The notes beneath the pieces were generated by a model. It ran no database searches and was not told the origin of the DNA. It saw nothing but the letters and a program-made list of their open reading frames with translations. This document shows positions 1 to 31,205 of a stretch of 64,000 nucleotides of DNA, one piece after another (position 1 is the first letter of the stretch; the number at the start of each line of letters is the position of its first letter). Source of the DNA: Escherichia coli (GTDB lineage: Bacteria > Pseudomonadota > Gammaproteobacteria > Enterobacterales > Enterobacteriaceae). Where the stretch lies: assembly GCF_044647545.1 (NCBI RefSeq), contig NZ_CP172818.1. One strand, written 5' to 3'. Both the position numbers and the translations under genes were made by a program.

Positions 1-440
1 ATTGCCCCCAGCACACCATAAATCAGGCTACCGGTCATAAGCTGGACCACCGTACCCGTAATGGCGTAGTGCCAGTAATTGTAAATATCGACGTTCATCG
101 TTTTGGTCAGACGGGTGACCAGCATGGCGACATTGAGAAGAAAAATAACTGGGATAATCATGGCGCCAATGGCTGTCGCATAACCAACGCCGGAGGCAGG
201 GCCTGCGCCAACGTCAAAGACATGCAGGGCTAGGCCGAAACGCTCAATCATCACTTTGATAGGGGGACTGAGGCTGTCGATCGCCATGACGATCACCAGT
301 CCCATACCGACAAAACCAATCCCAACCGTTACCCCTGCCTTAATCGCCTGCAGCCAGGGGATGCGGAAGATAAGGCCAATCACGATCATGATGATAGGGA
401 CGAAAACGGTACCGCCGAGAGACAGGATGTAATCAAACAT
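1..440 (-). CDS. sgcC: PTS sugar transporter IIC component SgcC, N-terminal part only (gene runs off the window start)
   Basis: Reverse strand translates MFDYILSLGGTVFVPIIMIV... from ATG at 438-440; RBS AGGAGG at 445-450 (minus); followed by sgcB and sgcX as in K-12. Confidence 0.85.
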   Translation of the reverse strand, partial: MFDYILSLGGTVFVPIIMIVIGLIFRIPWLQAIKAGVTVGIGFVGMGLVIVMAIDSLSPPIKVMIERFGLALHVFDVGAGPASGVGYATAIGAMIIPVIFLLNVAMLVTRLTKTMNVDIYNYWHYAITGTVVQLMTGSLIYGVLGA

Positions 441-451
441 AATGCCTCCTT

Positions 452-730
452 TTATTGAGTTAACAGAGCCTTGATTTGTTGTTTTAACGCGTCGTCGTTG
501 ATCCCTGTGAGCAGGGCGGCGCCATTAAGCGTAGGGATGCCGTAATCACTGTTGGTTCGCATGGAGGTTACAATAAGGTCCATACCGTTACAGTTAAGAG
601 GGATCTCATTCAGACAGCATTGGGCGGTAGTGGCTGAAATGCCCTGTTCAGTCAGGAACTCTTGCAGCTTGTGTGCAATCATGGTTGAAGTCGACATGCC
701 GGTACCGCATGCCACAAGGATCTTTTTCAT
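452..730 (-). CDS. sgcB: PTS galactitol-like IIB component
   Basis: 92-aa ORF MKKILVACGTGMSTSTMIA... with the IIB Cys-phosphorylation motif; ATGA overlap with sgcX stop. Confidence 0.9.
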   Translation of the reverse strand: MKKILVACGTGMSTSTMIAHKLQEFLTEQGISATTAQCCLNEIPLNCNGMDLIVTSMRTNSDYGIPTLNGAALLTGINDDALKQQIKALLTQ

Positions 731-1848
731 AATGGATGTGCCTCTTGTGTAGTGCCTGAATCAGGCTCAACGGGGAAATGTGCTGCTGACATACCTGCCA
801 GAGCGGTCAATAGGCGGATGCAATCAGTCAAATCACGCAGGCTGGCAACCTCCGCCGGAGAATGGGTATAGCGACAAGGAATAGAGAGACTGGCGCAGGG
901 AATACCATCCTGCTCAACCTGGATATAACCGGTTTCTGTTATCACGCCGGGAGCCACTTCTCGCTGCACCGGAATGTTGTGTTCAAGAGCCGTCTGTTCC
1001 AACATCCGTATCAGGCGAGGAGGCGTGATTAATCCGGCCAGCGTTCCCCGACCATGGTAGTTCAGGCAGGTGATCCCAACGCCCTGATTAATCCTGACCT
1101 CGGAATAATCGTGTAAATCAGGGGTGTCACACGATGGAGTGATATCAATACCAATCGCCAGGTCAGGTTTTACACGGCGTAATACGGGAACAATGCCGCG
1201 GATATTAAATTCTTCCTGTACCGAAGCCACCAGATAAACGGCGATATCAAGCTCCATAGTACTGATAGCATCCGCTACACCGAGCAGGGCAGTACAGCCT
1301 AGACGATCGTCTAGTGCTTTACTGCACACCAGATCGTTTGCCAGGAGTTGCGGCGGGTTATACAGAGTGACAGGCGTACCGACCTGAATGCCCATCCGTA
1401 TAGCGTCGTCTTTGTCTTTGGCACCAATATCAATCCACAGTTTGTCGACAGAAGGTGACTGCGTGCGCTCGTCGCCTTTGGCAAAGTGGTAGGACTTAAT
1501 GCCGATACACCCCATGACTGGCCCTTTGTCCCCGGTGAGGGTGACGATGGAACCAGCCATAGTGACCTGCGCAGGACCGCCTACGCGTTCAAAGCGTAAA
1601 AATCCAGACGGCTCTATTTTGCGCACCATAAAACCGACTTCATCCATATGCGCAAAAATCATCAGTCGCAGCGCATCGGGTTTATCACTACCGTAGCGCG
1701 CGACGACATTCCCAAGCCTGTCTCGCCAGACCTCTTTTGCCTGACGCCTGAATTCGCACAGCATGACGTCAGCGACAGCGTTTTCGTGTCCTGAAATCGC
1801 ATTGTGCTGCAAAAGCGAGAACAGGGTTTCCTGCACAGAAAATGACAT
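727..1848 (-). CDS. sgcX: M42-family aminopeptidase/endoglucanase-like protein SgcX
   Basis: ORF 727-1878 opens at GTG; the ATG at 1846-1848 (MSFSVQETLF...) has a GGAG RBS and gives 373 aa. Confidence 0.85.
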   Translation of the reverse strand: MSFSVQETLFSLLQHNAISGHENAVADVMLCEFRRQAKEVWRDRLGNVVARYGSDKPDALRLMIFAHMDEVGFMVRKIEPSGFLRFERVGGPAQVTMAGSIVTLTGDKGPVMGCIGIKSYHFAKGDERTQSPSVDKLWIDIGAKDKDDAIRMGIQVGTPVTLYNPPQLLANDLVCSKALDDRLGCTALLGVADAISTMELDIAVYLVASVQEEFNIRGIVPVLRRVKPDLAIGIDITPSCDTPDLHDYSEVRINQGVGITCLNYHGRGTLAGLITPPRLIRMLEQTALEHNIPVQREVAPGVITETGYIQVEQDGIPCASLSIPCRYTHSPAEVASLRDLTDCIRLLTALAGMSAAHFPVEPDSGTTQEAHPL

Positions 1849-2633
1849 AGCTATCTCCGTAGACCGTAAAACAATCACTCGTTGAGCGTTTTATAGGCGC
1901 AGACTGGTCGAATAATTGTGAGAACGTTCACGTGAAAACGCGCAAAGCTGAACAAATAAAAAATTATGTGAGCCGAGTGGAATAAAAGCGCTCAACGTTT
2001 GTGAAAGTTACGGGCTGGAGAGACCAGTGATTATGGTTGAAATAATGAGGATGAATAAAACGCGGTAACTGTTATAGCACCACTTTGTTGCAGGACGCTC
2101 CCTCTTCATTACGTCCTGCACGTGGATACCCCAGCATCTCCATCAGCGGATCTTAGAATGTAATGGCGCGTGGCAGGTCGTTGGTTCCCAGCATAATGTA
2201 AGAAAACATCGGATCTCCTGAATAGATTCAGAGGGAGTATAGATAATCAGCTCAAATCACTCTCCGCTTTATGAGCCCAGGCTGGCATTGCCGTCAGATA
2301 ACGTTTTGCACGCTTATGTGCTTCCTCCGGGCCGACTTTTTGCCAGGAATCAAGGAAGCTGGCTAAACCTGATACCGCTTCTTCCCAGGGTTTGAGATTG
2401 CCGTTGCTGTCGCTGCATTACGCACAATATTGATCACTGGCACTGTGTGCATCTGGTGCCGACATCGGCATTCCGCAAGCCTGACAGAACTGTTCATGTT
2501 GTGACATATGATGCTCCTTATGGTGACATCTTGATTAATAAACATACTGAATATGTATTGTGCAGGTGATACATCAGATCAAAGCAAAGGTAAAGCCTCG
2601 ATATTTCCAGCCAGAAATACCGGGAACCTGTTG

Positions 2634-3380
2634 TTACCGGGCGATGAGTGCGAACACGCCCCAGCCAAAGCATTCCCGCGCGTAGGTCACGTAGCGTTTC
2701 GGCGCGATGTTTAGTTCGGCCCTGACTTCGGCGGCGAAGTCATCGTCAGGATTCGCTTCCAGCCAGCGGCGCATGGTCAGCCATTTTGCGGCTTCATACC
2801 GGTCCCAGCCTTCCTGGTCTGCCAGTACCATTTCCACCACGTCATAGCCGAGATCGTCGAACGCTCCGACAAGTCCTGGCAGCGTCAGGAAATCGCTTGT
2901 CGAGCTGACGCCGCAGGCCTGGGCTATTTCTTCTGTTGCTGGTAGCTGACGCCAGTAGGGTTCGCCGATAAGCATGATCCCGCCCGGTTTCAGGCTTTGC
3001 GCTAGCAGCTCCTCCGCCCCGGCAAACCCACCGGCAATCCATGTCGCGCCGACGCAGGCCGCCACGTCACATTTTTCATTTGCGACGTAACCGGCCGCAT
3101 CGTTATGAATAAAATGTACGCGTTCGCTGACGCCGAGTTCTTCCGCGCGACGCTTTGCCTGCGCGGTGAAGAGCGAACTCATGTCGATGCCAGTCCCCGT
3201 AATGCCATGATCCCTGGCCCAGGTGCAGAGCATCTCGCCCGAGCCGCTGCCGAGGTCAAGAATGCGGGTGCCCGGCTTCATGCGCAGCACGCGACCCAGC
3301 GTGGCGTACTTCTCTTCGGTGAACGGGTTATGGATGCGGTGTTCACTTTCGCTGATGGTAAAAATACGTGGGATATCCAT
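2634..3380 (-). CDS. yjhP: SAM-dependent methyltransferase (KpLE2 remnant)
   Basis: 248-aa ORF with methyltransferase motif ILDLGSGSGEM; position matches K-12 yjhP. Confidence 0.85.
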   Translation of the reverse strand: MDIPRIFTISESEHRIHNPFTEEKYATLGRVLRMKPGTRILDLGSGSGEMLCTWARDHGITGTGIDMSSLFTAQAKRRAEELGVSERVHFIHNDAAGYVANEKCDVAACVGATWIAGGFAGAEELLAQSLKPGGIMLIGEPYWRQLPATEEIAQACGVSSTSDFLTLPGLVGAFDDLGYDVVEMVLADQEGWDRYEAAKWLTMRRWLEANPDDDFAAEVRAELNIAPKRYVTYARECFGWGVFALIAR

Positions 3381-3435
3381 TATTTAATTCCTGTTATTGG
3401 GTTAAGCCTTAAAAAGGACACAACAAGATTGTTAT

Positions 3436-3981
3436 TCACGTCAGTGCTCCGGTTTCATCAGGGTCTGCGCACCGGATGTGGCCGGTCAGGGTCATGGGCT
3501 GAGCGGTGAGTGATTGCATCATCCAGCAGGCTTTGTGCTCCTCCGGGATGGGATAAGGTGCCGGATAGCCTTTGTCTCCGGCACAGGGTTCGAACCCATG
3601 TCGGGGGTAATAGGTGGCGTGGCCGAGAACAAAAACCGTCTGGCAGCCCATCAACCTCAGGTGCTCGATGCCAGTGCGTATCAACCGTCCTCCCACGCCC
3701 ATCCCTTGGTATTCCGGTATGACCGCCAGGGGAGCGAGGATGTGCATCAACGGTGAATCCATTTCTCCTTTGAAGGTTGCCCGGGTAAATAAAATATGCC
3801 CGACGGCTTTGCCTTCATACCGGGCTAGCAGCGATAACGCGGGGCGCGCGCTTTCATCCTCAAGTAAAGAGGCCACTAAATCGGCTTCTTTGCTGAAGCC
3901 AAATGCGCGGGTTTCGACTTCCCGGATATCACTGGCATCACTTTTATCTGTGATATGAAAAGTGAAGTGGTGTACTGTCAT
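3436..3981 (-). CDS. yjhQ: GNAT-family acetyltransferase, cognate antitoxin partner of TopAI
   Basis: 181-aa ORF, GNAT-like; immediately downstream of yjhX on the same strand. Confidence 0.85.
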   Translation of the reverse strand: MTVHHFTFHITDKSDASDIREVETRAFGFSKEADLVASLLEDESARPALSLLARYEGKAVGHILFTRATFKGEMDSPLMHILAPLAVIPEYQGMGVGGRLIRTGIEHLRLMGCQTVFVLGHATYYPRHGFEPCAGDKGYPAPYPIPEEHKACWMMQSLTAQPMTLTGHIRCADPDETGALT

Positions 3982-3992
3982 AGAAACTCTCC

Positions 3993-4250
3993 TTAGCGAT
4001 TATCGAGCTGAGCGCGAACTTTATTCAGCTCGGTGGTGTTGATTCGATAGGGCTGGCCATTGACGGACTTGATAAGTTTTTTGGTTTTGAGTTTTTTGAA
4101 GACGGCGAGCGTGCAGTCGGTCAGCAACAGCCCTTCGCGGCTGTAGCATTCAACGGAAGTGACGCGGCCTGAAGAATCGCGGACGTGCGCAATACGTCTA
4201 CCTTTAGCGAGAACGTGTAAGGTATGTTGTTCCTGACGGGATAAATTCAT
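3993..4250 (-). CDS. topAI: Topoisomerase I inhibitor toxin TopAI (YjhX)
   Basis: 85-aa [28 protein letters not shown]...; small toxin-sized gene upstream of yjhQ. Confidence 0.8.
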
Positions 4251-4740
4251 ACTGAAGAACCTATTTAATCATCATGTGCAAAACGTGCAAACACACCGCG
4301 GTGTCCGCATTCGATTTCGGCGCATTGATAATCAGTCCGGCCTGAAAAGGTCGGGGAACTGATTATCGGATGATTACATTCTCCAGCATCAAAGCCTCGG
4401 GTTGAGTTGAAAGGTATTTACGGAGCGAATATTAACACGTAGTTATAGGAGGGATATGTTTCAGTAGAAAAAGTGTGATGTACTTTGGAAATTGAATGCC
4501 AACCCATTTACTGGAAAAGGCAGATGACACTGACGAATGCATGTTGAAGTACGCCTGAAATGGCCTCATCGGCTTTTCCCTTCGGGAGATTATTCTCCTT
4601 TTGTTAAATCCAGAACATAAATATGCTCACCCATCTTCGATGCTTGAAAAATTGAAGCCAATCCTGATAAGTAATTTTTTTGAAAGGGTATTTTCCGGAT
4701 TCACACCGGCTTTGATGAGTGAAAAACCGTTCTCTTTTAT

Positions 4741-4959
4741 TCAGTCAATCGTGGCGGTAATTGCTTCAATTGCATATCCCTGGCGAGCATAAGCGGGACT
4801 GATGGTATAGCCGAGCCAAAACACATCGCATTGCTGACGTAAATAGATATCACCAATCAAAACCTGCGTCATTTGTTGACAATGGCCAATTGAATATCGC
4901 GAGCAAGTGTAAGAACTCCCAGCAAGACCCTGTAAATAATTCTGTGTAACTGCCCACGA
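4741..4959 (-). pseudogene. 3' fragment of a GNAT (RimL-like) acetyltransferase gene, no plausible full-length ORF
   Basis: Minus-strand translation ...MTQVLIGDIYLRQQCDVFWLGYTISPAYARQGYAIEAITATID*; closed by an in-frame stop at 4960-4962; below the 60-aa ORF-track cutoff. Confidence 0.35.
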
Positions 4960-5035
4960 TTAAAGGTGGTCGCTCAGGCGGTCACCGTATTCGATAATAA
5001 ATGGGTCTGGAAAAAGTGCAGCATCTGGCAGCGTA

Positions 5036-6228
5036 ATGCAGGTAGCCCAGTTCAACTCTCACTACCAGTATGATCCCAAGTTCGAGCGCGGAATGTATCT
5101 GTATGAGCATCGTCGCTGTTTCAATAACATCATCGACTACTGTAACTCACTTTGCTATCACGGTAAGTTGCAGCCTAAAAGAGGGATGGAAAAAGGACGA
5201 TTTTCCCCGCAATGGGATATTTACATATTGATGGTAGAGGCATGAAGCCAAATGGAGGGAGCCGTCATAACCCTCTTGAAGCTGAAACAATAGCAGCATG
5301 GCTGGTGGCACATAAGGATGATATAGAGCGCCATTACGGGGAACCACTGTACAAAGTTGTTGGTGTTGTGACGCCATTTTCGGCGCAGGTTAATGCTATC
5401 AAAATGTCATTGCGTAAGCTGGAAATTAATGGCAAAGACGAGCAGGGTTTACTGACAGTGGGGACTGTGCACTCCTTGCAGGGGGCGGAAAGGGCGATTG
5501 TTCTCTTTTCTCCTGTCTACTCAAAACATGAAGATGGCAGGTTTCTTGATAGCAACAGCACTATCCTCAATGTTGCTGTCTCACGCGCTAAAGATAGTTT
5601 TCTGGTATTTGGCGATATGGACCTTATCGAGATGCAGCCCGCATTTTCGCCGCGAGGGTTATTGGCAAAATATCTCTTTTCTTCAGATAATAATGCGTTG
5701 CAATTTGAGTTTCAGAAACGACAGGATTTAATTTCCGCACATACACAAATTTCAACGCTGCATGGTGTGGAGCAGCATGATGAATTTTTGAACAAGACTC
5801 TTGCCGGAGCTCAAAAGAAAATAACGATTATTTCCCCTTGGTTATCCTGGCAAAAAGTGGAGCAAACGGGATTTCTGGCATCAATGGCTTTGGCCCGTTC
5901 CCGGGGCATTGATATTACCGTGGTGACGGATAAAAACTGCAATATAGCGCATGTCGATGATGATAAGCGTCAGGAGAAACAACATCTGCTGAATGATGCT
6001 GTTGAAAAGCTCAATAAGATGGGTATCGCTACGAAATTGGTTAATCGTGTTCACAGCAAAATTGTGATTGAGGATGAAGAACTGCTGTGTGTCGGATCTT
6101 TTAACTGGTTCAGTGCTACACGGGAAGATAAGTATCAACGATACGATACGTCTTTGGTGTACCGTGGTGAAGGCGTAAAAAATGAAATAAAGGCAATATA
6201 TGGTAGTCTGGATCAACGTCAGCTTTAA
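5036..6228 (+). pseudogene. yjhR: Frameshifted, 5'-truncated SF1 helicase C-terminal domain fused to a PLD-like (HxK) nuclease domain
   Basis: ORF 5036-5245 (..[11 protein letters not shown]..) continues in another frame as ORF 5212-6228 (..[15 protein letters not shown].., ..[20 protein letters not shown]..); no helicase N-terminal motifs upstream. Confidence 0.7.
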
Positions 6229-6810
6229 ATGTGATGAGCCGTTCATGATACAGGAGTAGTAAAGGGCATATTTTACCAATGTTAAGGCGACTTTCCGTTT
6301 TATTGCGAGTCGCCTTTCCTGATTATAAATCTTATTGTTTACCTAATCATTTTCCTTTGCATAATGCGCCTGGGATTAATGGCGGGTGCTTTTAGGAATG
6401 AAAGAAAATGCAAGCAATAATATAATAATGGCCTAATTTCTTTGAACATCATTAAGCATATCATCATCGTCTATTTGCCAGAATCCGTCGACTTATAATC
6501 GCCAGAACGGCATATCAGGACGGTGCTGCGAACGCTGTGGCCCAAAACGTTCCAGTAAACTGTGTAGATGTTCGTAGATTTCCGAGCCATAATCGAAAAG
6601 GCGCGGATGTCTATTAAGGCATCCGGCTAATCTGTAAGCAATAACAACGGTTTATGCGGTGCGCGTTTTTCACCCTTGTGCCAGATTATTATATTGGCAA
6701 TTGCCTGCTGTTCGAGCCCGCAAGTGAAGAGATATTACCTTGATCTCATTTGTTTTTTGTTGTCTACTCTGAGAACGAACAAGGACATCCCCCATGAATA
6801 AACTCCCCGC

Positions 6811-7791
6811 TCACCTTTCGCGCCAAAACTGCAAAATTGCTTCTACAAACCTGTCAGAAATAATCCCTCGACGGGCTGCCGCGCTGAAATGACTGCTTCG
6901 CAGTGCCGTCGTCCAGTTCTCCGGTGACCGGTACGCTGAACCGTAATATCCCGTGCTTAAATCGTCCGGATCTTCATCAGGCGCGTTCGTCAGTCCTCTT
7001 GCACCTTGTTGCTGGAAGTCGACGAAAATAATATTGGCTAGAACATTATTTTGATAATTGCCATAAATAGCTTCATACGCATGAGGGAAATTTTCTTTCC
7101 AGTACCAGGTGGTATCGCCGCAAAACCACGGCGCGTCAGTAATTTTATTAAGCTGAGAATGGTATTGTTTTAGATCCCTACGAAAGGCGTCAACCATATG
7201 ATTAAAGTGTTGAGGGTGTGACGCGTAGTCACTGGTCATTAAGTCAAATTCGCCTTGCATCCAGCATACGCCGAGGAATTTGTTCTGCGGATTTTTTGCC
7301 AGTGCGGCTCGCGTTCTGCTGACTAAATCCTGGTATAGCGGAGTATCCGTTCCCCAACGACAAGCATCATGGCTGGCTCCGTGCCGTTCTGAATATGTCC
7401 CTTCGCTGCCCGCGGTAAAAGCCGATCCGCCACGGCAACACGGAACGATGAGAACCCCTGCATTATCAGGAATAAAGGGCAGTAATTTCCGTGCTATATG
7501 TAGTGCCTGGCCAACGGTGCCGTACTGTGTTTGATGATTCGTTGCCAGAGGATGGTGATAACCCTGCATATCCTGAACATCGTGTGGGCAGTGAGTCAGT
7601 GGAATAATGTCGTTAAAGTGACATGACGGGCCTCCGGGATGTGTATGCGCAAATCTCGCTAATTGTTTAATTCTGGGATGAGGCGCATCTTCCTTGTCCG
7701 GTAATGGTAGTCCTTCGCCATACGCCATGGCATTAGACTGACCAGCAACGGTAAGAACATAGTAATAATCGGGCGATATTATTGCGTTCAT
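6811..7791 (-). CDS. nanS: 9-O-acetyl-N-acetylneuraminate esterase
   Basis: ORF 6811-7818; ATG at 7789-7791 gives MNAIISPDYYYVLTVAGQSNA... (326 aa). Confidence 0.85.
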   Translation of the reverse strand: MNAIISPDYYYVLTVAGQSNAMAYGEGLPLPDKEDAPHPRIKQLARFAHTHPGGPSCHFNDIIPLTHCPHDVQDMQGYHHPLATNHQTQYGTVGQALHIARKLLPFIPDNAGVLIVPCCRGGSAFTAGSEGTYSERHGASHDACRWGTDTPLYQDLVSRTRAALAKNPQNKFLGVCWMQGEFDLMTSDYASHPQHFNHMVDAFRRDLKQYHSQLNKITDAPWFCGDTTWYWKENFPHAYEAIYGNYQNNVLANIIFVDFQQQGARGLTNAPDEDPDDLSTGYYGSAYRSPENWTTALRSSHFSAAARRGIISDRFVEAILQFWRER

Positions 7792-7855
7792 ATAATTTTC
7801 GCGTAATACAAATGACAAATTGATAGCAAGGCCCCTTTACCGGGGCCCTGAAGCG

Positions 7856-8962
7856 TTAGTTTTGTACTGTGACTTTATTATCCTTCACAGAAATTAAAAC
7901 TGAATCCGTCACCGCTTTGCCGCCTGCAGTTTCACCGCCAATAATTAATAAACTATTATTCCAGGGCAATGATACTCCGTAGGCCCGACCTTGCGATAAT
8001 TCGCCCGATTTATCCCATTTCCCGTTATGCCAAAGATGAATATCAGCGCTATATGATTTTTTCAGGCCTTCATGCGCATAGTTCTTACCGTTCTGGTAAT
8101 TTTCTCGTGAACCTTTGAATCCGGCCCCTCCGGCAAATATAAGTGAGTCATTGCTCATGCCTGCAAAACCGCCAGCGACGCCATCTGGTGATGCGACGGG
8201 AGCAAGCTTATTCCATTTTAAATTATTACCGGTGAAATCAAGTTCAAATACGGCATCCGTTCGCAATCCTGGTTTGGCTTCGCCATTAATAAGCCAGGTT
8301 TTATCACCTTTATTCACAACCGCCGCACCAGCCGTTCCGTACCAGGGAGATTCGCCAGCGTAACTCCATTGCTGTGTAGAGGGATCAAAAGACAACAGAA
8401 ACTTATTGAAGAAATAATCTTCTGCTTTTTTGTCAAAATAGTGGGCGTTGATTTTATCTATAGTGGTTGAATCTTTTCCAGCTTCGTTGAGATCTTCAAA
8501 ATAGCCATTGAAGATATTCTGGTTAACACCGCCAGTAACATAAGCCTTGCCGTTGTGTACAAAAGTCACATGGCCCGCCATGCCCATCGGCGCGTGCGAC
8601 ATCAATTTAACCCAGCTATTGGTTTTGGGGTTGTATTTGTGTACGTCATTAAATACCTGAGTCAAGCCCTCGCTGTTTTTGCCAATGCCGCCAAACACAT
8701 ACAGATTACCATCAATAAATGCAGAGGTTGCTTGATCTCTCGGTCCACCAGGGAATGCAGCTAACGCTGTCCATTTTTTATCTTTGGCCTGTGTATCCAG
8801 CTTGTACCATGCTGTACCTGCGCTACCTAAACCAATGTAGACAGTGTCGTTATCAATTGCTCCGGTACCACTTTTAAATGGCACAGGAGTTTCCGGTAAT
8901 ACAGACGCGTTTGCGGCAAATGAAGCCATTATGATAGCAAGCGCCGTTATTGTTTTATTCAT
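7856..8962 (-). CDS. nanM: N-acetylneuraminate mutarotase (Kelch-repeat periplasmic protein)
   Basis: ORF 7856-9070; ATG at 8960-8962 (MNKTITALAIIMASFAANA...) with a signal peptide and GGAGA RBS. Confidence 0.85.
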   Translation of the reverse strand: MNKTITALAIIMASFAANASVLPETPVPFKSGTGAIDNDTVYIGLGSAGTAWYKLDTQAKDKKWTALAAFPGGPRDQATSAFIDGNLYVFGGIGKNSEGLTQVFNDVHKYNPKTNSWVKLMSHAPMGMAGHVTFVHNGKAYVTGGVNQNIFNGYFEDLNEAGKDSTTIDKINAHYFDKKAEDYFFNKFLLSFDPSTQQWSYAGESPWYGTAGAAVVNKGDKTWLINGEAKPGLRTDAVFELDFTGNNLKWNKLAPVASPDGVAGGFAGMSNDSLIFAGGAGFKGSRENYQNGKNYAHEGLKKSYSADIHLWHNGKWDKSGELSQGRAYGVSLPWNNSLLIIGGETAGGKAVTDSVLISVKDNKVTVQN

Positions 8963-8981
8963 TGTGACTGTCTCCTGTCTA

Positions 8982-9698
8982 CTACAGTTTAAATGATACA
9001 CCAATGCGATAACTGTTTTCCGATAAATTATCTCTGCCGTTGTAAACACCCTGACGGTCAAGGTAGTCATATTCTATGTATGGCGTAATATCGGGCGTCA
9101 TATGGTATTGTAGAACAAATGCATTTTCCGTCGCCCATTTCTTATGGTTTGCATAGCGATAATCGTTCTGTTTGCTGTATAGCGTCGTTTGCCATGCGAA
9201 GGTGAAATCACTATTAATATGGTAAGTGACATATCCATCCCAACGATGAACGTTATCACGAGACATATCACCGGATAAGTCTTGTTGTCGGTAAGCTTTC
9301 CAGTCGTAACGATAGCGAATGCCAAAATTAAGATCTTTTGTCGCGTCCCAGGACAGTTTTACGTAGGGTCCGTAGCGGGTGCCGTTGCTGCTAAAATGCG
9401 TTAACATTCCCGGGCGCACCGTCCATTGATCATCAAGTTTAATCGCGTAATTAACTTCAACCTGAACATCATTGAGTGCGGCATTTTCCTTTTTATTATC
9501 ATGAATGGTATTCCAGGTATTACTTTCCATGCTTGCCCACCATCCATTTTGCCATCCCTCACTGACTTTGAGTCGAGTCTCATAGGCATGGCTTCCGCTA
9601 CGATATCCACCACGTACGTCCAGTGTCGCAGCCTGAGAAATTAATGGTGACGAAAAGCACAGTAATAATACGCCAGAAAGTATTTTAGCCTTTTTCAT
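8982..9698 (-). CDS. nanC: N-acetylneuraminic acid outer-membrane channel (KdgM family)
   Basis: ATG at 9696-9698 gives MKKAKILSGVLLLCFSSPLISQA... (238 aa); beta-barrel C-terminal ...IGVSFKL. Confidence 0.9.
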   Translation of the reverse strand: MKKAKILSGVLLLCFSSPLISQAATLDVRGGYRSGSHAYETRLKVSEGWQNGWWASMESNTWNTIHDNKKENAALNDVQVEVNYAIKLDDQWTVRPGMLTHFSSNGTRYGPYVKLSWDATKDLNFGIRYRYDWKAYRQQDLSGDMSRDNVHRWDGYVTYHINSDFTFAWQTTLYSKQNDYRYANHKKWATENAFVLQYHMTPDITPYIEYDYLDRQGVYNGRDNLSENSYRIGVSFKL

Positions 9699-10121
9699 AA
9701 ATTTCACTCATTTGTAGGATACAGAAAGCAATACAAAGCCCGCATAAACAATTAGCATTTATGTTGTGTAATATTTTTTGCCAGGCTTATAGTGTCTTTG
9801 GCAATGGGTAGCTTATTTTATATTTTTTGTATAAGGTCTCCTGTGAAAATTCTCTTTTCACATTATTTAAATAAACAGAGAGCCAGATTAAATACCTGAG
9901 TATAAAATCTCTTCTGATGTTTAATTGATTTGAATGTTCGTAAGCTATATCACTTACTCAATCCATTTTACCCAGAGTCATAAAATAGAGTGTTTGTTGA
10001 TCTCATTTTCATATTCCTTTCAGACTGAAGTGCGTTTTCATCACCCGATGAGAAAGAACTGAAGTGATGTTTGCCATAGATTGCAAGATGCCCTGTCTCA
10101 TTGTCTATCGCGGTGCACCTT

Positions 10122-10136
10122 TATACCTGTTATACC
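10122..10136 (-). promoter_or_regulatory. Candidate NanR operator (two GGTATA hexamers, GGTATAACAGGTATA on the minus strand)
   Basis: Plus strand reads tatacc-tgt-tatacc, about 420 bp upstream of nanC. Confidence 0.5.
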
Positions 10137-10883
10137 AGATCAAAAATCACGCAATCCATACAACAAAACCAGATTTGCAATTCGTGTCACAAAATATGTC
10201 GATCTTTTTCTAAGAGGAAGATGCCATGTGAAGCCAGACGAACACTTGCGGTGGTCTTCAAAAACTAAAGATATTCTTTTAAATATCTGTTTTATAAATA
10301 ATTTATTTAGAGTCTAAATAAGGGAAGCTTTGTAAGCTAACTCAGTGAGCTTGGTGAAAATAAGTGTTTACCCGCCATCAGGCTTAGCATAATTCTCATC
10401 ATGAAATATGTTTCCTGGTTTGTGGCTTGTAACTGGTCACTCCTGAAGCCGATCTGGAGAGGCTTGTTGATGTTGGTGTTTTCAGGGTGATGCCTCACTT
10501 AGTTTGTTTGCCGTATCGCCCGGCGAACAGCTGTGATTGAGGAAGGTTTAAGTCGTAGTGACCAAAGCCATATTTACCAACGGATGCAGATGAAAAAATC
10601 GTTTCCTGCTTTCCCCCATATCTCCATGATAAAAAGGAATGTAACAATCTCATGGTCTAAACTGACGAACCAGCCAGGAATAATCGCTAGGGACCTAAGA
10701 ATTAGCATGATAATAGCCACTAAGAAATTACTGCGTTCCATGAAATAGCCATTTTGTGGCAAATGGAGTTGACTAATAATGTCATATGTGAGACGGCTAG
10801 TTGAGCGAATATTAAATTTTGCTGAATTTTTTATGTTGATTTTACTTGTTACAGAACATATCACATGATATATAGATAATAAG

Positions 10884-11544
10884 AGAAGACAGCGCCGGGG
10901 GCCCGCGGCGCCCGCTCCCAGCGCGGCGGGGGCGGGGGGGGGATATAAGGGAGCCTCGTCCCACACCAGCAAAGGGGACGCGGCTCGAGCCCAGCGGGAA
11001 GGGGCGCGGGGAACGTCCGAAGGCGTCATACGCGTAAAACAGCCAGCGCGCGCGATGCGCACATCCCACGTTCGTCCATTCCGCGCAGGACGTGACGACG
11101 CCGGCGTTGGCGGGTTACCGCGCGGCGGGCTGCGGGGCGTTGAGGAACGCCCATAATGGCGGGCGTGCGGCTCCAACGTTCGGCTCTGTTTGGGCTGGTG
11201 CGTACCGGGTTGAGAAGCGGGTAAGTGAACGCGTTGCCGTTTTACGGCAGTGAGAGCGAGTAGCGCCCGCGCGCGGGGGGGGCGGCGGGGCGCGGCCGGT
11301 GTCCCCGGCGCGGCGCGGGTTCGTGGAGGCCACGCGCCAGTGCGGGAGTGGGCCCGGCATGCGAACGGCCGCACTGGGGGCATTCAATGACGACCTTCTC
11401 GGTTCGTGGTGGAGAGGGGGGGACGGTGGGCAGGGCGGCGGGGCGCGGCCCGGCGGGGCCGCGCACCGGGGGGGGGGGGGGGGGGGGGGGGGCGCACCAC
11501 CCCGCGTGCTGCGGGGCAGCGGTGGGCGGCCCCTCTCTCGGGAA
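10884..11544. other. Non-native GC-rich block with a 32-nt G homopolymer occupying the position of fimB-fimE-fimAICDFG and most of fimH; probable artefact or engineered scar, not a gene
   Basis: Abrupt switch at about 10884 from AT-rich nanC-fimB intergenic DNA to high-GC sequence with G runs (10920-10940, 11273-11281, 11469-11502); ends where the fimH reading frame resumes. Confidence 0.8.
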
Positions 11545-11715
11545 CAGTTGATGCGCAACGGTACGATTATTCCAGCGAATAACACGGTATCGTTAGGAGC
11601 AGTAGGGACTTCGGCGGTAAGTCTGGGATTAACGGCAAATTACGCACGTACCGGAGGGCAGGTGACTGCAGGGAATGTGCAATCGATTATTGGCGTGACT
11701 TTTGTTTATCAATAA
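11545..11715 (+). pseudogene. fimH: 3' remnant of fimH (type 1 fimbrial adhesin); the rest of the fim operon is absent
   Basis: Translation ...RNGTIIPANNTVSLGAVGTSAVSLGLTANYARTGGQVTAGNVQSIIGVTFVYQ* matches the FimH C-terminus; upstream frame dissolves into GC-rich filler. Confidence 0.85.
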
Positions 11716-11785
11716 AGAAATCACAGGGCATTGCTAATGCAGGTACGCAATATTACCTGAAGCTAAAAACCTGCACGTTAGCCCT

Positions 11786-11826
11786 TTGTAGGCCAGATAA
11801 GACGCGTCAGCGTCGCATCTGGCATA
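11786..11826. repeat. REP (repetitive extragenic palindromic) element
   Basis: tgtaggccagataagacgcgtcagcgtcgcatctggcat, canonical REP consensus. Confidence 0.7.
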
Positions 11827-11887
11827 AACAAAGCGCACTTTGCGACAATCCGAACAGAGCCCGCCATTGGCAGGCTCTGGTGTTCTT

Positions 11888-13231
11888 TTACGCTACCATG
11901 CTAATAATCAACACAATAATCAGCCCAACCACGGAGTTGACCAGCTCCAGCAGTCCCCAGGTTTTCAACGTGTCTTTTACCGACAGGTCAAAGTAACCTT
12001 TGAACAGCCAGAATGAGGCATCATTAATGTGGGTGAGGGTGTTGGAACCCGCAGCCGTCGCCAGCACCAGCAGCGCCGGATTCACGCCAACCAGCTGACC
12101 GGTTGCTGGATCAAGGATTGCAGCACTGATAATCCCGGCGGCGGTCATCGCCGAAACGACACCCTGACCCGTCGCCAGACGAATTAGCACAGTGATCAGC
12201 CATGCCATAATGTAGGGCGAGATATTGCCGTGGGACATCAACATGCCGATGGTGTCGCCAATGCCGGTGTCGATGATAGTTTGCTTCAACACGCCACCCG
12301 CACCGATGATCAGAATCACCATTGCAATGCTTTTCACCGCACTTTCAAAAGCGTTCATCACCCACTGCATGTCATGACCACGTGCGGTGCCAAAGAGTAC
12401 GAATGCAACCACCATCGCAATAAACATTGCAATCGGCGAGGAACCGATAAAGTTAACCACTTCCCAGGCAGGGGTATCTTTTACCAGCCAGATATTGGCG
12501 ATGGTGGTGGAGATCATAATGATCGCCGGGATCAGCGGCACCAGAATCGAAACGCCGAAAGAGGGCAGATTGTTCATATCTACCGGTTGATCTGCTTTCA
12601 GGAATGATGGCGTTGGGCGCTCAAGATTGCCGAGGAACTTCGGCAGGATCAGACCTGCGCAGATTACACTTGGGATCGTCACCAGTACGCCATAGATATA
12701 AACCATCCCCATATCTGCGCCATAAGCATTCACCAGCGCCACAGGACCCGGCTGCGGTGGGAACAGTGAATGTGCGGTAGTGGCAGCTGCTACTGCCGGG
12801 ATCGCCAGTTTCAGGAACGGAATTTTAGCTTCGGCGGCAATGACAATAACCAGCGGCGCTAACATGATAAAGGCCACTTCATAGAACATCGCCAGACCAA
12901 AAATCAGGCCGATGATAATCACCGACAGCTGTACATAGCGCAGACCGAGACGCGCCAGCAGCGTATGTGCTATCTGGTGAGCCGCGCCGGAGTCGACCAT
13001 CAATTTACCGATGACCGCACCGAACACCACGATGATAGCCAGTTCCCCCAGCGTGTTGCCGAAGCCCGCTTTCATGGTGTGCAGCAGCGACATCAAATCC
13101 ATGCCCGCCAGCATCCCGACGGACAGCGCCGCCACCAACAAAGCCACCATTGAATTGATTTTGAACTTCAAATTCAGTACCAGCATCAGACCAATGCCGA
13201 ATACCACCCAGAGAATGTTAAGCACATGCAT
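11888..13231 (-). CDS. gntP: Fructuronate/gluconate transporter (GntP family)
   Basis: 447-aa multi-[22 protein letters not shown]... Confidence 0.9.

Positions 13232-30376: not shown

Positions 30377-31205
<829 letters not shown>

Follow-up and report, generated by a model that had tools for sequence, protein, structure and literature searches.

A predicted NanR operator upstream of nanC, retained with the fimB control region beside an IS1-associated fim deletion in Escherichia coli

The DNA analysed is a 64,000-nucleotide stretch of an Escherichia coli genome (contig NZ_CP172818.1 of assembly GCF_044647545.1), referred to here as the window. The part of interest runs from the sialic acid genes nanCMS, across the former nanC–fimB spacer, to a remnant of fimH and gntP. 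The features of this segment, by window position and strand, are as follows.

6811–7791, minus strand: nanS, sialate O-acetylesterase, intact, 326 aa; collinear with K-12 b4309, with 9 amino acid differences and no internal stops
7856–8962, minus strand: nanM, N-acetylneuraminate mutarotase, intact, 368 aa; 6 differences from K-12 and no internal stops
8982–9698, minus strand: nanC, sialic acid outer-membrane channel, intact, 238 aa; 100% identical to K-12 NanC and annotated as nanC in matching genomes
10114–10136, minus strand: predicted NanR operator (O_NR), with perfect GGTATA repeats at 10131–10136 and 10122–10127 and a degenerate third repeat
10138–10141, either strand: GATC (Dam site), 1 nt from the first GGTATA repeat
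10176–10198, plus strand: NagC operator O_NC1 ("fimB1"), an exact match to the published TGCAATTCGTGTCACAAAATATG, with a GATC at 10201–10204
10388–10410, plus strand: NagC operator O_NC2 ("fimB2"), an exact match to the published CATAATTCTCATCATGAAATATG
10687–10698 and 10702–10713, plus strand: SlyA operators O_SA2 and O_SA1, exact matches to CTAGGGACCTAA and TTAGCATGATAA, respectively (PMC3173223)
10846–10874, plus strand: fimB core promoter, the top-scoring sigma-70 candidate in 10700–10889
10880–11544, minus strand: what is almost certainly a garbled IS1 copy, 665 bp and 74% GC, with a run of 25 G at 11468–11492; transposase on the minus strand
11545–11715, plus strand: fimH 3′ remnant, the last 56 codons and stop, reading ...GVTFVYQ*; annotated as a partial "fimbrial protein" in a matching genome
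11888–13231, minus strand: gntP, 447 aa, identical to K-12 GntP and convergent with the lost fim operon

Downstream of the fimH remnant the order is gntP, on the minus strand, and then uxuAB. The orientation of gntP means that it cannot be driven from the nanC–fimB control region. A scan for a terminator after the fimH stub found none, and a scan of 8900–12000 against Rfam returned nothing at gathering score. Between the fimH stub and gntP, at 11791–11865, Rfam gives a weak naRNA4/REP-like hit of 31 bits (the gathering score being 59.5), which probably represents an ordinary REP element.

Over 4197–10879 the window follows K-12 collinearly at 98.4% identity, and collinearity resumes from 11538 (the 3′ end of fimH, at 11545). 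Within this segment, positions 9699–10879 align end to end with the K-12 nanC–fimB intergenic region; the overall identity is 96.1% over 1,181 bp, nanCMS being intact at the left, and the control region shows the same elements, in the same order and at the same spacing, with the exact published sequences. The initial annotation, which was made from the letters and open reading frames, had described a long AT-rich region upstream of nanC, a retained NanR-type operator built of GGTATA repeats, and the absence of fimB. All three were borne out: the GC content is 0.36–0.39 over 9501–10500, as against about 0.5 in the flanking coding DNA; the operator is an exact K-12 match and unique in the window; and K-12 homology stops at 10879 and resumes at 11545, in fimH. 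The comparison which that annotation had proposed, of 9699–10883 with the K-12 spacer in order to place the breakpoint, was carried out, and puts the end of homology 273 bp upstream of the fimB ATG. O_NR (10114–10136), O_NC1 (10176–10198) and O_NC2 (10388–10410) all lie upstream of this breakpoint, as does every SlyA site. A breakpoint upstream of the NanR/NagC sites was what the initial annotation had named as refuting it; the alignment shows the reverse order, and its reading is supported.

The fimB promoter comprises a −35 hexamer, TTGTTA, at 10846–10851, a 17-nt spacer and an extended −10 element, TGaTATATA, at 10866–10874. A first promoter scan, which required T at the last −10 position, missed it; a relaxed scan ranked it top. 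The transcription start of fimB maps to 10880–10881 (best estimate 10881), equivalent to K-12 4540685–4540686. This placement was anchored on distances to the start given in a single paper (PMC3173223), for the SlyA sites (−194 to −167) and for the two fim03 amplicon ends (−45 and −327), and carries an uncertainty of about 1–2 nt; up to three fimB promoters are reported in other literature (PMC11316696). K-12 homology thus ends about 2 nt before the mapped +1, and on these published distances the window breakpoint is placed essentially at the fimB transcription start. The promoter has no fimB coding sequence to drive, fimB having been deleted.

Compared with K-12, the segment that is missing corresponds to 4540694–4549538, i.e. 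8,845 bp comprising the fimB leader, fimB, fimE, fimA–G and most of fimH, of which a 3′ remnant of 171 bp is left. The cut falls near +8 of the fimB transcript, or near −2 in the garbled window, so that the fimB 5′ UTR is absent together with fimB, fimE, fimS and fimA–G. This allele is not new. A fimH remnant scored as a "171 bp hit", with IS1 between gntP and nanC, has already been published (PMC8281228, Clark & Maresso 2021), and the strains listed there as carrying it are EAEC 042, B1 EAEC/EAHEC (O104:H4), an ST648 strain and ETEC 90-9281. The E. coli 042 genome paper does not mention the fim deletion.

E. coli 042 provides the cleanest view of the junctions. Its left flank is 100% identical to the window over 8900–10879 and 99.98% identical from 6808; after the equivalent of 10879 it continues for nine further K-12-like bases, GATTAGTTG, and then enters the IS1 inverted repeat, GGTAATGACTCC. 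The same junction, GATAAGATTAGTTG followed directly by GGTAATGACTCC, is present in E. coli 042 and two other genomes. The IS1 of E. coli 042 is intact (767 bp), has its transposase on the minus strand, and ends exactly where the window resumes at 11545; from that very base onward the two are 99.8% identical. The right junction of the window is thus that of the 042-type allele, in which 171 bp from the 3′ end of fimH precede gntP. At the left, the window is garbled from 10880, 9 bp short of the junction of GATTAGTTG with GGTAATGACTCC known from 042-type genomes, and shows a garbled 665 bp in place of the 9 bp plus 767-bp IS1 found in E. coli 042. For the source strain of the window, the IS1 junction would accordingly lie at about +8 of the fimB transcript, as judged from these other genomes. 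No target-site duplication was found in the flanks of the E. coli 042-type IS1, consistent with either an adjacent deletion driven by IS1 or recombination of one IS1 copy with another.

Of 5,426 complete genomes, 324 (about 6%) contain a full match to a 300-bp query across the junction; three genomes inspected individually have an identical junction. The spacer haplotype is of similar frequency: 314 of the 5,426 genomes are at least 99% identical to the window over 9699–10879, and the next best allele is only 97.5% identical. The two least similar members of this class that were inspected both carry IS1, and no fim-retaining relative of the deletion haplotype was found in the class of at least 99% identity. 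Divergence within the deletion haplotype is no more than 0.2%. These figures suggest that the deletion allele is a haplotype of single origin which has spread across lineages; its published carriers belong to phylogroups D, F and B1 (PMC8281228), an indication that recombination spread it. To judge from sequence comparison, the DNA to the left of this fim deletion varies: the window has a K-12-like left flank with a full-length nanS, but nanS is truncated in E. coli 042. To the left of the equivalent of 6808, E. coli 042 carries different genes, among them an HNH endonuclease and a fragment of a restriction endonuclease for phosphorothioated DNA.

Upstream of the breakpoint, the published operators were located in the window by exact sequence matching. 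The two 23-bp NagC operators, TGCAATTCGTGTCACAAAATATG and CATAATTCTCATCATGAAATATG, were taken from Table 1 of PMC3098098; both are present, with a centre-to-centre distance of 212 bp, and are positioned for looping. The H-NS2 and H-NS3 sites (PMC3173223) are likewise matched exactly, at 10678–10716, and overlap the SlyA operators. NagC acts on nanC as well as on fimB (PMC3098098, citing Condemine 2005), and NanR and NagC bound at these sites activate K-12 fimB from a distance (PMC3173223), the activating sites being described as lying "between around 760 and 470 bp upstream" (PMC3173223). Measured from a +1 at 10881, O_NR spans −767 to −745 and O_NC2 spans −493 to −471, in agreement with the published "around 760 and 470". 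A minus-strand sequence at about 10176–10195, TGTGACACGAATTGCA, was considered as a CRP-like site of a class II nanC promoter and was rejected, being the published O_NC1.

Whether the region stranded by the deletion has begun to decay was assessed from an alignment of eight alleles: those of the window and of K-12, and six diverse alleles from genomes which retain fimB. The spacer as a whole is very polymorphic within the species, with 142 polymorphic columns and pairwise identities of 93–98%, and the window haplotype is no more than 97.5% identical to any fim-retaining allele. Both facts would suit a decaying relic under relaxed selection, in which even the NanR and NagC sites may be non-functional. 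The distribution of the variation nevertheless argues against such a relic. O_NC2 and the fimB core promoter are invariant across the eight alleles, and O_NR, O_NC1 and the SlyA/H-NS block have one or two variable columns each; in the window neither the published operators nor the core promoter deviate by a single letter, and the 9 private substitutions of its allele all fall outside them. The identity of the window allele to the others (94.2–97.5%) is within the range among the fim-retaining alleles (93.0–98.1%). In addition, the NanR and NagC sites are still under selection through nanC, and the divergence of no more than 0.2% within the deletion haplotype implies that too little time has elapsed for decay. 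The orphaned fimB-side region shows no sign of decay, and we regard a decaying relic as very unlikely.

The block at 10880–11544, which takes the place of fim in the window, required separate consideration. In the genomes with a clean sequence at this position, the corresponding DNA is the 9 bp of fimB leader followed by the intact 767-bp IS1. The block aligns collinearly with the IS1 of E. coli 042, in the same orientation, in patches of 80–91% identity, and relative to IS1 it has suffered a massive loss of A and T and gain of G and C. The corruption overwrites 9 bp of unique flank at the left and stops exactly at the IS1 boundary at the right. A second G-saturated block was observed at about 30390–31170. 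Its GC content reaches 95% and it has runs of 116, 38, 22 and 17 G; it is flanked by mdtM and yjiA/brnTA, at exactly the place of an IS1 in related genomes, and its sequence is in none of the complete genomes searched. Because both IS1 sites of the window are garbled alike and 9 bp of unique flank are lost, the block at 10880–11544 is almost certainly an artefact that assembly or sequencing produced at a repeat, and not a biological insert.

The initial annotation had spoken of a replacement of fim, and the block could be taken for genuine foreign DNA, either a high-GC fragment or a hypermutated IS1, which would place a new functional element next to the control region. Its GC content is 74%, where that of the genome is about 50%, its sequence was absent from all complete E. 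coli genomes searched, and it contains long open reading frames, such as that of 269 aa at 10574–11383 on the minus strand. Long open reading frames are, however, expected by chance in sequence of 74% GC. A foreign origin also fits poorly with the collinearity with IS1 in the orientation seen in E. coli 042, with differences that consist mostly of A/T deletions and G insertions, with the run of 25 G, with a second garbled block that again falls at an IS1 site of related genomes, and with a left end that has eaten into 9 bp of unique flank while the right end sits exactly at the IS1 boundary. We know of no bacterial process which yields such a mutation spectrum of A/T deletion and G insertion. 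Foreign DNA is thus highly improbable here, and the word "replacement" has to be given up: nothing foreign was found, and the lesion is the published IS1-associated deletion with a filler of garbled IS1. The 269-aa open reading frame, which extends out of the garbled block as far as the fimB promoter region, is almost certainly spurious, a product of the 74% GC artefact which a gene caller could annotate as a hypothetical protein.

No biological reading of 10880–11544, or of the block at about 30390–31170, is warranted. The two serve as a warning about the repeat regions of this assembly, and this warning is the most useful practical output of an analysis whose importance outside annotation is small.

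The element from which the study set out is O_NR. Read on the minus strand, 10136–10122 is GGTATA-ACA-GGTATA (GGTATAacaGGTATA), and after an AA spacer a third, degenerate repeat follows, GGTGCA, at 10119–10114. NanR operators are defined by at least two GGTATA repeats spaced 2–3 nt apart (PMC3658417, PMC8012715), and O_NR has this structure. In all three operators of the sialoregulon NanR binds within 5 bp of a GATC (PMC5155068), and O_NR has its Dam site 1 nt from the first repeat. The operator is situated 416–438 bp upstream of the nanC ATG (9698), hence upstream of a sialoregulon operon, nanCMS. Its 40-nt context, CGTGATTTTTGATCTGGTATAACAGGTATAAAGGTGCACC, is the same as that of the K-12 nanC-side operator, letter for letter, and a 27-nt core, TTGATCTGGTATAACAGGTATAAAGGT, is common to it and the K-12 operators of nanA and nanX (yjhB). 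The operators of nanATEK-yhcH and nanXY (yjhBC) have, like it, the core TTGATCTGGTATAACAGGTATAAAGGT with a GATC beside the repeats and spacers of 3 nt and 2 nt. The nanA and nanX operators have a perfect third repeat, whereas O_NR has GGTGCA in that place and therefore two perfect repeats only, in which it is like the K-12 nanC operator.

In both strands of the 64-kb window, the pattern GGTATAN{2,3}GGTATA occurs a single time. Among 100 dinucleotide-preserving shuffles of the window the mean was 0.01 occurrences per window, one shuffle in 100 containing any. Short as the motif is, and AT-rich as the region is, a chance repeat devoid of regulatory meaning has practically no standing in view of that expectation, of the identity of the 40-nt context with the K-12 operator and of the 27-nt core with nanA and nanX, and of the near invariance of the operator region (1 of 30 columns polymorphic) within a polymorphic spacer. 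Positions 10122–10136 are accordingly assigned to a predicted NanR operator of nanC, the activity of NanR at the site being transferred from K-12. In published work, two close repeats are bound by NanR cooperatively with a KD of about 25 nM and a single repeat is not bound, and Neu5Ac relieves the action of NanR (PMC8012715); genomic SELEX has located NanR on the nanC/fimB spacer (PMC5934670).

The T which precedes the first GGTATA repeat forms with it, at 10129–10137 on the minus strand, the sequence TGGTATAAC, a good extended −10 element (TGnTATAAc), and this extended −10-like pattern TGGTATAAC is kept in all three NanR-controlled operons (nanC, and K-12 nanA and nanX). The best nanC promoter candidate in the region is the extended −10 TGgTATAAC inside this first repeat, identified by its match to the consensus. 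By the same consensus match, the arrangement suggests that the first repeat of the NanR operator may double as the −10 element of a promoter.

Taken together, the site is very probably O_NR of the divergent nanC–fimB region, in an allele in which the whole fimB control region has been kept, fim has been lost through an IS1 deletion, and the GC-rich block is a corrupted IS1. In the working proposed for such a region, cooperative binding of NanR dimers to the close GGTATA repeats would keep the nanCMS promoter blocked, Neu5Ac would lift this repression, and NagC at O_NC1 and O_NC2 would add responsiveness to GlcNAc. In K-12, O_NR, O_NC1 and O_NC2 in addition activate the fimB promoter from about 470–760 bp away. 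By alignment, the IS1-associated deletion took out all the DNA between about +9 of the fimB transcript and the end of codon 244 of fimH. The fimB upstream control region survives it unchanged, with its SlyA/H-NS sites, −35, −10 and +1, and no fim gene is left to receive the output.

The initial annotation had called the region upstream of nanC orphaned, and had held that any remaining output could act only on nanCMS. The first description does not suit the NanR and NagC sites, which are nanC's own operators (PMC8012715, PMC3098098), and is apt for 10411–10879, a stretch which has no published nanC role and in which the SlyA/H-NS sites lie together with the core promoter. The NanR and NagC sites would be expected to keep working for the intact nanCMS; nanR and nagC are outside the window and their presence is assumed, nanR being carried by >99% of E. 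coli isolates (PMC10088187). Their fimB-activating role, on the other hand, would be without a coding target. The second statement holds for genes and not necessarily for transcripts, in that an intact fimB promoter points into IS1. If active, this promoter would transcribe only into IS1, antisense to insAB, and into the fimH stub. It is conceivable, if improbable, that the geneless fimB promoter acts as a source of antisense RNA over the IS1 transposase which responds to sialic acid and GlcNAc, and that by damping IS1 or stabilising the allele it has aided the spread of the latter.

Earlier literature describes the NanR operator and the sites that partner it, as well as the IS1-associated deletion of fim. 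What is added here is the position of the deletion endpoint, about 8 nt into the fimB transcript, so that the full promoter and the upstream operators are kept, together with the frequency of the allele, about 6% of complete genomes, and the spacer haplotype that is tied to the deletion. In such strains, nanCMS are the only coding genes within reach of sialic acid and GlcNAc signalling at this locus. With the whole fim operon gone, Neu5Ac and GlcNAc cannot act on type 1 fimbriation via fimB.

A fim deletion of a different kind was noted in strain WB61 (NZ_CP020025.1, positions 2952–3633). This deletion is independent and lacks an IS element: a 228-bp fragment from the 5′ end of fimB adjoins a 453-bp fragment from the 3′ end of fimH, and the nanC–fimB control region is whole.
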